Source of the DNA: Escherichia phage vB_EcoM_G2285
Length of the DNA: 64,000 nt
Direction: 5' to 3' (one strand)
Sequence record: MK327933.1
A program made the translations under genes and the position numbers. Below the pieces are notes generated by a model. It was not told where the DNA came from. It worked only from the letters and a program-made list of their open reading frames with translations, and searched no databases. Shown here piece by piece: positions 37,696 through 39,321 of this stretch; positions within the stretch are counted from its first letter, which is position 1; every line of letters begins with the position of its first letter.

Positions 37696-39231
37696 ATGAA
37701 ATTTAATATCTTAAGTTTGTTTGCTCCATGGGCAAAAATGGACGAACGTGATTACAAAGACCAAGAAAAAGAAAATTTAGAATCTATCACAGCACCAAAA
37801 TTGGACGACGGCGCTAAAGAATACGAAGTATCTGAAAATGAAGCACAGCAAACATATAATGCTATGTTTCAGAGAATGTTCGGTAGTCAAGAACCAGGGC
37901 TCAAATCAACCCGTGAATTAATCGATACATATCGAAATTTGATGACGAACTATGAAGTGGATAATGCGGTCTCTGAAATAGTTTCTGATGCTATCGTATA
38001 TGAAGATGATACAGAAGTCGTTTCCATAAATTTAGACAACACAAAATTTAGTCCAAATATCAAATCAATGATGTTGGATGAATTTAACGAAGTGTTGAAT
38101 CATTTATCTTTCCAACGTAAAGGTTCAGATCATTTTAGACGTTGGTATGTGGATTCTCGAATTTTCTTCCATAAAATTATTGACCCTAAACGCCCTAAAG
38201 AAGGTATTAAAGAGCTTCGTCGTTTAGACCCACGCCAAGTTCAATATGTCCGTGAAGTTATTACAACCACTGAAGCTGGTGTTAAAATAGTCAAGGGTTA
38301 TAAAGAATATTTCATTTATGACACATCACACGAATCTTATGCTTGTGATGGTCGCATATATGAAGCTGGCACAAAAATAAAAATCCCTAAAGCCGCGATT
38401 GTTTATGCCCATTCTGGTTTAGTTGATTGTTGTGGTAAAAATATCATTGGTTATTTGCATCGGGCTATTAAGCCAGCGAACCAATTAAAACTTCTTGAAG
38501 ATGCCGTCGTAATTTATCGTATTACTCGTGCTCCCGATCGTCGTGTATGGTACGTTGATACAGGTAATATGCCTTCAAGAAAAGCAGCAGAACATATGCA
38601 ACATGTTATGAATACGATGAAAAACCGTATTGCATATGATGCTACCACAGGCAAGATTAAAAACCAACAGCATATTATGTCGATGACCGAAGATTATTGG
38701 TTACAACGACGTGATGGTAAAGCAGTAACAGAAGTTGATACATTACCAGGTGCAGATAATACCGGAAATATGGAAGATGTACGTTGGTTCCGTAATGCGC
38801 TTTATATGGCTTTACGTATTCCTATTACCCGTATTCCAAGTGACCAAGGTGGTATACAGTTTGATGCTGGTACTTCTATTACACGAGATGAATTGACATT
38901 TGGTAAATTTATTCGTGAGCTGCAACATAAATTTGAAGAGATATTCCTAGACCCGCTTAAAACTAATTTAATTCTTAAAGGAATTATTACAGAAGATGAG
39001 TGGAATGATGAAATAAATAATATTAAGATAAAATTTCATCGGGATAGTTATTTCTCGGAATTAAAGGATGCTGAGATTCTGGAGCGTCGCATTAATATGC
39101 TTCAGATGGCCGAACCATTTATTGGTAAATATATTTCTCACAGAACAGCTATGAAAGATATTCTTCAGATGTCTGACGAGGAAATTGAACAAGAGGCTAA
39201 GCAAATTGAAGGATATTCTTCAGATGTCTGA
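37696..39231 (+). CDS. 20: portal vertex protein gp20, C-terminus altered by frameshifting 55-bp tandem duplication
   Basis: 511-aa ORF ending ...[10 protein letters not shown]; removing one copy of the 55-bp repeat restores ...[22 protein letters not shown] and a T4-like 524-aa product ending at 39320. Confidence 0.85.
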
Positions 39232-39266
39232 CGAGGAAATTGAACAAGAGGCTAAGCAAATTGAAG
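39157..39266 (+). repeat. perfect 55-bp tandem direct duplication (two copies) inside the 3' end of gene 20
   Basis: gatattcttcagatgtctgacgaggaaattgaacaagaggctaagcaaattgaag at 39157..39211 and again at 39212..39266, verified base by base. Confidence 0.9.
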
Positions 39267-39321
39267 AAGAGTCGAAAGAGGCTCGTTTCCAAGACCCCGA
39301 CCAAGAACAAGAGGATTTTTA

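Follow-up and report, generated by a model that had tools for sequence, protein, structure and literature searches.

The window, that is, the whole stretch of 64,000 nucleotides analysed, is part of a T4-like Mosigvirus (RB69-like) phage genome and includes T4-type small and large terminase genes. The gene order in the 20 kb around the site described here is 13-14-15-16-17-18-19-20-67-68-21-22-23-24, and its portion 19-20-67-68-21-22-23 matches RB69. Near the 3' end of gene 20, upstream of gene 67, a unit of 55 bp is written twice. The features of the locus are the following:

37696..39231, plus strand: written ORF of gene 20, 511 aa, encoding the portal vertex protein and homologous to the T4 gp20 structures 6uzc and 3ja7
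39152..39155, plus strand: TGAA, with one base (A, 39156) between it and the start of copy 1
39157..39211, plus strand: copy 1 of the 55-bp unit, in which the gene 20 reading frame is kept (string comparison, TRF)
39212..39266, plus strand: copy 2, matching copy 1 at 100% identity, which puts gene 20 into the +1 frame
39267..39322, plus strand: 3' end of gene 20 (18 codons and TAA), displaced and out of frame with the gene body (the frame 3 segment in tblastn)
39311..39314, plus strand: GAGG, a Shine-Dalgarno-like motif read from the sequence, which precedes the gene 67 ATG by 7 nt
39322..39549, plus strand: gene 67 (prohead core protein), whose ATG shares TAATG with the stop of restored gene 20

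The 55-mer, GATATTCTTCAGATGTCTGACGAGGAAATTGAACAAGAGGCTAAGCAAATTGAAG, lies at 39157-39211 and again at 39212-39266, the two copies abutting head-to-tail and being identical at 55/55 bases in an exact string comparison. TRF found the same repeat (period 55, 2.1 copies, score 223), so that the perfect tandem duplication claimed at these positions in a preliminary description of this DNA is borne out by both methods. The junction 20-mer across the adjoining copies is CAAATTGAAGGATATTCTTC, and the sequences for coverage comparison are ATGAAAGATATTC and ATTGAAGAAGAGTCG. Among all repeated 25-mers of the 64-kb window the 55-mer pair is the sole tandem repeat, and a chance match is therefore excluded; the remaining repeated 25-mers correspond to a dispersed intergenic element.

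As written, gp20 is colinear with the intact portal over its first 505 aa, after which it continues with GYSSDV and a TGA stop. The frameshift of gene 20 and the end of its ORF at 39231, both asserted in the preliminary description, agree with the ORF found at 37696-39231. When one copy is deleted, no matter which, a portal of 523 aa is obtained, the same length as RB69 gp20, and its TAA (39320-39322) overlaps the ATG of gene 67 (39322-39324) as TAATG. Compared with this restored protein, the written one has lost 18 C-terminal residues and gained 6 (GYSSDV). The TAATG overlap had thus been described correctly, whereas the restored length given earlier (524 aa) should read 523, the stop placed at 39320 ends at 39322, and the number of lost residues is 18 and not 19. 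The nucleotides of the displaced segment 39267-39322 are identical in RB69 and phi25-307.

Since gene 67 has its own GAGG motif 7 nt upstream, it would not depend on translational coupling alone. The uncoupling of gene 67 that had been put forward would follow from the written sequence, with an effect softened by this Shine-Dalgarno motif; the loss of coupling as a source of a strong phenotype was considered and is weakened by the same motif. As a separate observation on this gene, positions 39496-39548 form an imperfect repeat of GAT/GAC/GAA codons (TRF periods 3, 9, and 21), from which the acidic C-terminal tail of gp67 is translated, and the length of gp67 varies: 75 aa here, 76 aa in phi25-307, and 78 aa in RB69 and mar005P1.

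Residues 1-523 of the restored portal align to residues 1-524 of T4 gp20 (PDB 6UZC, 3JA7) with E = 0, with one difference within the last 37 residues. By this alignment, the product of restored gene 20 belongs to the T4 gp20 portal family as one of its ordinary members, crown-domain C-terminus included. Unlike T4 gp20 (3JA7, 6UZC) and RB69 gp20, the written ORF is only 511 residues long and has 6 foreign residues in place of the last 18. In T4, the portal crown domain comprises residues 451-524 and consists of three helices followed by eight C-terminal residues that are disordered in cryo-EM (PMC4493910). On this layout, both the disordered acidic tail and about 10 ordered residues of the crown helix alpha12 would be lost through the truncation. 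The intact last 60 residues are uninterrupted in 1,192 of 1,255 T4-like phage records, from hosts ranging from Escherichia to Aeromonas, and 650 records match them at 95% identity or more; this argues that the removed tail is under constraint. The gp20 dodecamer accepts C-terminal GFP fusions at up to about half of its twelve positions, and proheads with GFP-fused gp20 stay locked in an unexpanded form until packaging of DNA (PMC9958956). Thus, the portal C-terminus is not inert, and its alteration or truncation is not necessarily lethal.

The integrity of the neighboring genes was evaluated by translating the 21 annotated genes of a 98%-identical relative (LR027383) and mapping them by tblastn to the surrounding 20 kb of the window. 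Nineteen of the 21 map full length, in a single frame and gap-free; gp67 differs solely in the length of its acidic low-complexity tail, and gp20 is the only one split across two frames, at the duplication. A generally poor assembly was considered as an explanation and rejected, as 0 of the other 20 neighboring genes are frameshifted. An isolated lesion in an otherwise clean sequence therefore fits a single join and not an error-prone assembly. Two further observations concern the capsid genes of this region. The gp24 gene (43471-44754) and the gp23 gene (41479-43047) cross-match at ~25% identity as secondary tblastn hits, which is the known paralogy of vertex and major capsid proteins. Shigella phage JK36 (MK962754.1) is ~800 bp longer than the window over 30000-50000 and has two features annotated as "major capsid protein", which suggests that JK36 has an insertion within or close to gene 23, e.g., a homing-endonuclease gene or mobile intron, that is missing from the window.

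Many Escherichia coli and Shigella phage records are ~98% identical to the 20 kb around the repeat. A 701-nt query over the site matched 696 phage records, and among the best matches listed all were in two pieces, spanning ~649 nt, without the junction; these relatives therefore carry a single copy. Similarly, a 60-nt junction query against the phage collection gave two-piece matches to single-copy genomes only and no evidence of the junction, and the junction was absent from IMG/VR, from the contigs of a metagenome collection of 241 million records, and from the GTDB genome contigs (100,044 species). Five environmental contigs contain the 55-mer, each in one internal copy. A single copy with identical flanks was present in all seven sequences read directly (the five contigs, RB69, and phi25-307), and in the alignment of each of the seven with the window, the break coincides exactly with the duplication. 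In the three-way alignment with RB69 and phi25-307 the difference is a clean gap of 55 columns, with 100% identity otherwise over 39100-39345; the gap replaces one copy, and the choice of copy is arbitrary. The window gave no match among complete E. coli genomes or plasmids. Look-ups of exact protein matches to the truncated gp20 and to the 1,032-aa product of the gene 7 ORF likewise yielded nothing. A relative with the same two copies, named in the preliminary description as the finding that would argue for a tolerated natural allele, was found neither among the phage matches listed nor in IMG/VR, the metagenome contigs, or the GTDB contigs. Dating the event by the decay of the displaced 18 codons was also attempted and proved uninformative, since at ~1.6% divergence less than one difference is expected in 56 nt.

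The same comparisons showed a change in identity in two relatives. Against positions 34710-40413 of the window, L004 (IMGVR_UViG_3300030021_000023), an environmental contig, shows 84% identity across genes 18-20 and 98% identity beyond the end of gene 20. This step suggests a putative mosaic boundary, due to recombination, in the vicinity of the portal gene's 3' end. The step in L007 is milder, from 96.0% to 98.1%.

Then, we evaluated the homology at the junction. The exact microhomology is 0 bp, the identity at period 55 being exactly 55 long. The TGAA found one base before copy 1 also occurs at 39207-39210 and 39262-39265, where the next base is G; relative to the TGAAa before copy 1, this is an offset and imperfect microhomology, and TRF extends the repeat five bases leftward with one mismatch (TGAAa vs TGAAg). 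As a null expectation, every possible 55-bp breakpoint of the restored sequence was examined. An exact microhomology of 0 bp is the commonest outcome (55% of arbitrary breakpoints). At least four matches just past one mismatch occur at 0.9% of the breakpoints of the window, at 1.2% of those of gene 20, and at 3.5% of those in the last 300 nt of gene 20, a stretch that is Glu-codon-rich; any homology of at least four bases, exact or offset, occurs at ~10% of breakpoints locally. The offset TGAA near-homology gives mild backing to a real event of slippage or unequal exchange.

The tandem repeat is most probably not a real feature. We consider it highly probable that the second 55-bp copy is an artefact of assembly or finishing, namely, an untrimmed overlap of contig ends, and that it is not in the phage DNA. 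T4-type phages use headful packaging and their genomes are circularly permuted. A k of 55 is the largest default of SPAdes for shorter reads and the default of metaSPAdes. Among 751,567 contigs with direct terminal repeats surveyed in the CheckV study, the repeat lengths peak at 55, 77, and 99 bp, which its authors attribute to assemblers breaking a circular template at random and leaving a repeat of k-mer length at both ends (PMC8116208). A case in a T4-like phage is coliphage 132, which assembled as a circle and whose SPAdes contig had 55-bp overlapping ends that were trimmed before the genome was re-opened to match T4 (PMC8483715).

The proposed course of events is as follows. A short-read de Bruijn assembler would close the genome on itself, because T4-like genomes are circularly permuted, and the contig would be output broken at an arbitrary place, with its first and last k bases identical (k = 55). 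The ends would then be joined and the sequence re-opened at a conventional start, or windows would be cut from it as from a circle, with the overlap left untrimmed. The k bp would then stand twice in perfect tandem at some arbitrary internal site, which here lies within the last 110 nt of gene 20, and since 55 is not a multiple of 3, the portal of the written sequence would be frameshifted and truncated. In the phage itself, the portal would be of the normal 523 aa, and gene 20 would meet gene 67 at TAATG. In such a course of events, the landing of the duplication in gene 20 and the frameshift are incidental. We infer that this particular genome may have been assembled and rotated by such a pipeline without trimming. 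With the known class of k-mer overlap artefacts the repeat shares the exact copies, a length equal to a default k (55/77/99/127), a genome of a type (T4-like, permuted) that assembles as a circle, and the lack of a second carrier in the searches above. Its position would be arbitrary with respect to genes, and the breakpoint, where the exact microhomology is 0 bp, also bears the offset TGAA near-homology. It differs in that its copies are adjacent and internal and not at the record ends, so an extra step is required, either joining and re-opening or the extraction of a window over the ends.

Spontaneous frameshifts by tandem duplication are known from the classical rII and lysozyme mutants of T-even phages, and tandem duplications are a recognized class of T4 mutation, which counts in favor of another reading: a real and very recent 55-bp tandem duplication, produced by replication slippage or unequal recombination, in a viable isolate whose portal lacks its last 18 residues. 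The repeat resembles those mutants in its head-to-tail arrangement, its length of tens of bases, the coding frameshift, and the imperfect TGAA near both endpoints, a near-homology that is uncommon by chance (0.9-3.5%). However, the T-even mutants typically join within exact short repeats, and here the exact microhomology is 0 bp, while a microhomology-mediated event would be expected to leave a short exact repeat at its endpoints. A slip primed by TGAA should moreover leave TGAAA, and TGAAG is observed, unless a terminal mismatch was extended. In further difference from those mutants, the gene hit here is essential and has a tail conserved over more than 1,100 T4-like records. A second carrier was found neither among the listed phage matches nor in IMG/VR, the metagenome contigs, or the GTDB contigs, and the 7 sequences read directly are single-copy. 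The length of 55 bp also coincides exactly with a default assembler k. T4-type phages are highly recombinogenic, so a direct repeat of this length should not be stable in them, and a less fit duplication would soon be lost. As regards the protein, cryo-EM shows disorder in the last 8 residues of T4 gp20, in line with a tolerated loss, but ~10 ordered residues of helix alpha12 would be lost besides them (PMC4493910). Likewise, the partial tolerance of C-terminal GFP fusions to gp20 speaks for viability, and the influence of the gp20 C-terminus on prohead expansion speaks against it (PMC9958956). The downstream effect could be mild, gene 67 retaining its own Shine-Dalgarno. Taken together, we regard a real duplication of this kind as unlikely.

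High-titer lysates of T4-type phages can carry duplication variants, and a real duplication carried by only part of the lysate, or by defective genomes that the wild type complemented, could have been fixed by the assembler or the consensus. The near-microhomology argument applies equally to this reading, which we consider very improbable: consensus assemblers normally collapse a minority tandem copy, and the coincidence with k = 55 would go unexplained. An artefact of another origin would arise from contigs or amplicons overlapping by 55 bp and pasted without being collapsed, or from a window cut across the ends of a record with a 55-bp terminal repeat. It would have the same anatomy as the untrimmed contig-end overlap (perfect copies, arbitrary position, a single lesion among intact genes), and contigs with terminal repeats of length k are abundant in public data (PMC8116208). 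Conversely, IMG/VR and the metagenome collection yielded no contig that both begins and ends with the 55-mer, the five matching contigs having a single internal copy and none of them being identical to the window, and we give this origin a minimal probability; it differs from the preferred explanation solely in who left the overlap untrimmed. Between the two outcomes proposed in the preliminary description, a recent duplication or an assembly or sequencing artefact, the artefact is thus favored by the match of 55 with the k of SPAdes and metaSPAdes and by the lack of a second carrier in these searches.

If the repeat is an untrimmed overlap, only curation is affected: the genome is 55 bp too long, and the portal is misannotated as truncated or as a pseudogene, an error that passes to protein clustering, core-gene phylogenies, and pseudogene counts. 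The case also yields a screening rule for phage and plasmid genomes, by which internal tandem repeats that are perfect and exactly 55, 77, 99, or 127 bp long should be presumed untrimmed overlaps until the reads disagree. It is rather doubtful that the duplication is real and that the isolate forms plaques with a portal lacking its last 18 residues (~10 of alpha12 and the conserved acidic disordered tail). In that case, the conserved C-terminus of the T4-type portal would be dispensable for head assembly, packaging, and infection, and the truncation, modestly interesting as a natural one, would offer a natural allele for the role of the crown in prohead expansion.

The dispersed element that accounts for the remaining repeated 25-mers is ~40-65 nt long and occurs in five copies, at 4061-4125, 5356-5420, 10173-10237, 10501-10565, and 10876-10940. 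Its core is GATAGGACTACTATAACATAGTCCTAT...TTGTAAAC, and the copies are intergenic, upstream of small ORFs on the minus strand. Read on the minus strand, the element resembles a T4-type early promoter (GTTTAC ... TATAGT) with an internal palindrome (TAGGACTA / TAGTCCTA). The early-gene region also contains two adjacent tRNA genes on the minus strand, tRNA-Asn(GTT) at 9053-9124 and tRNA-Met(CAT) at 9131-9205.
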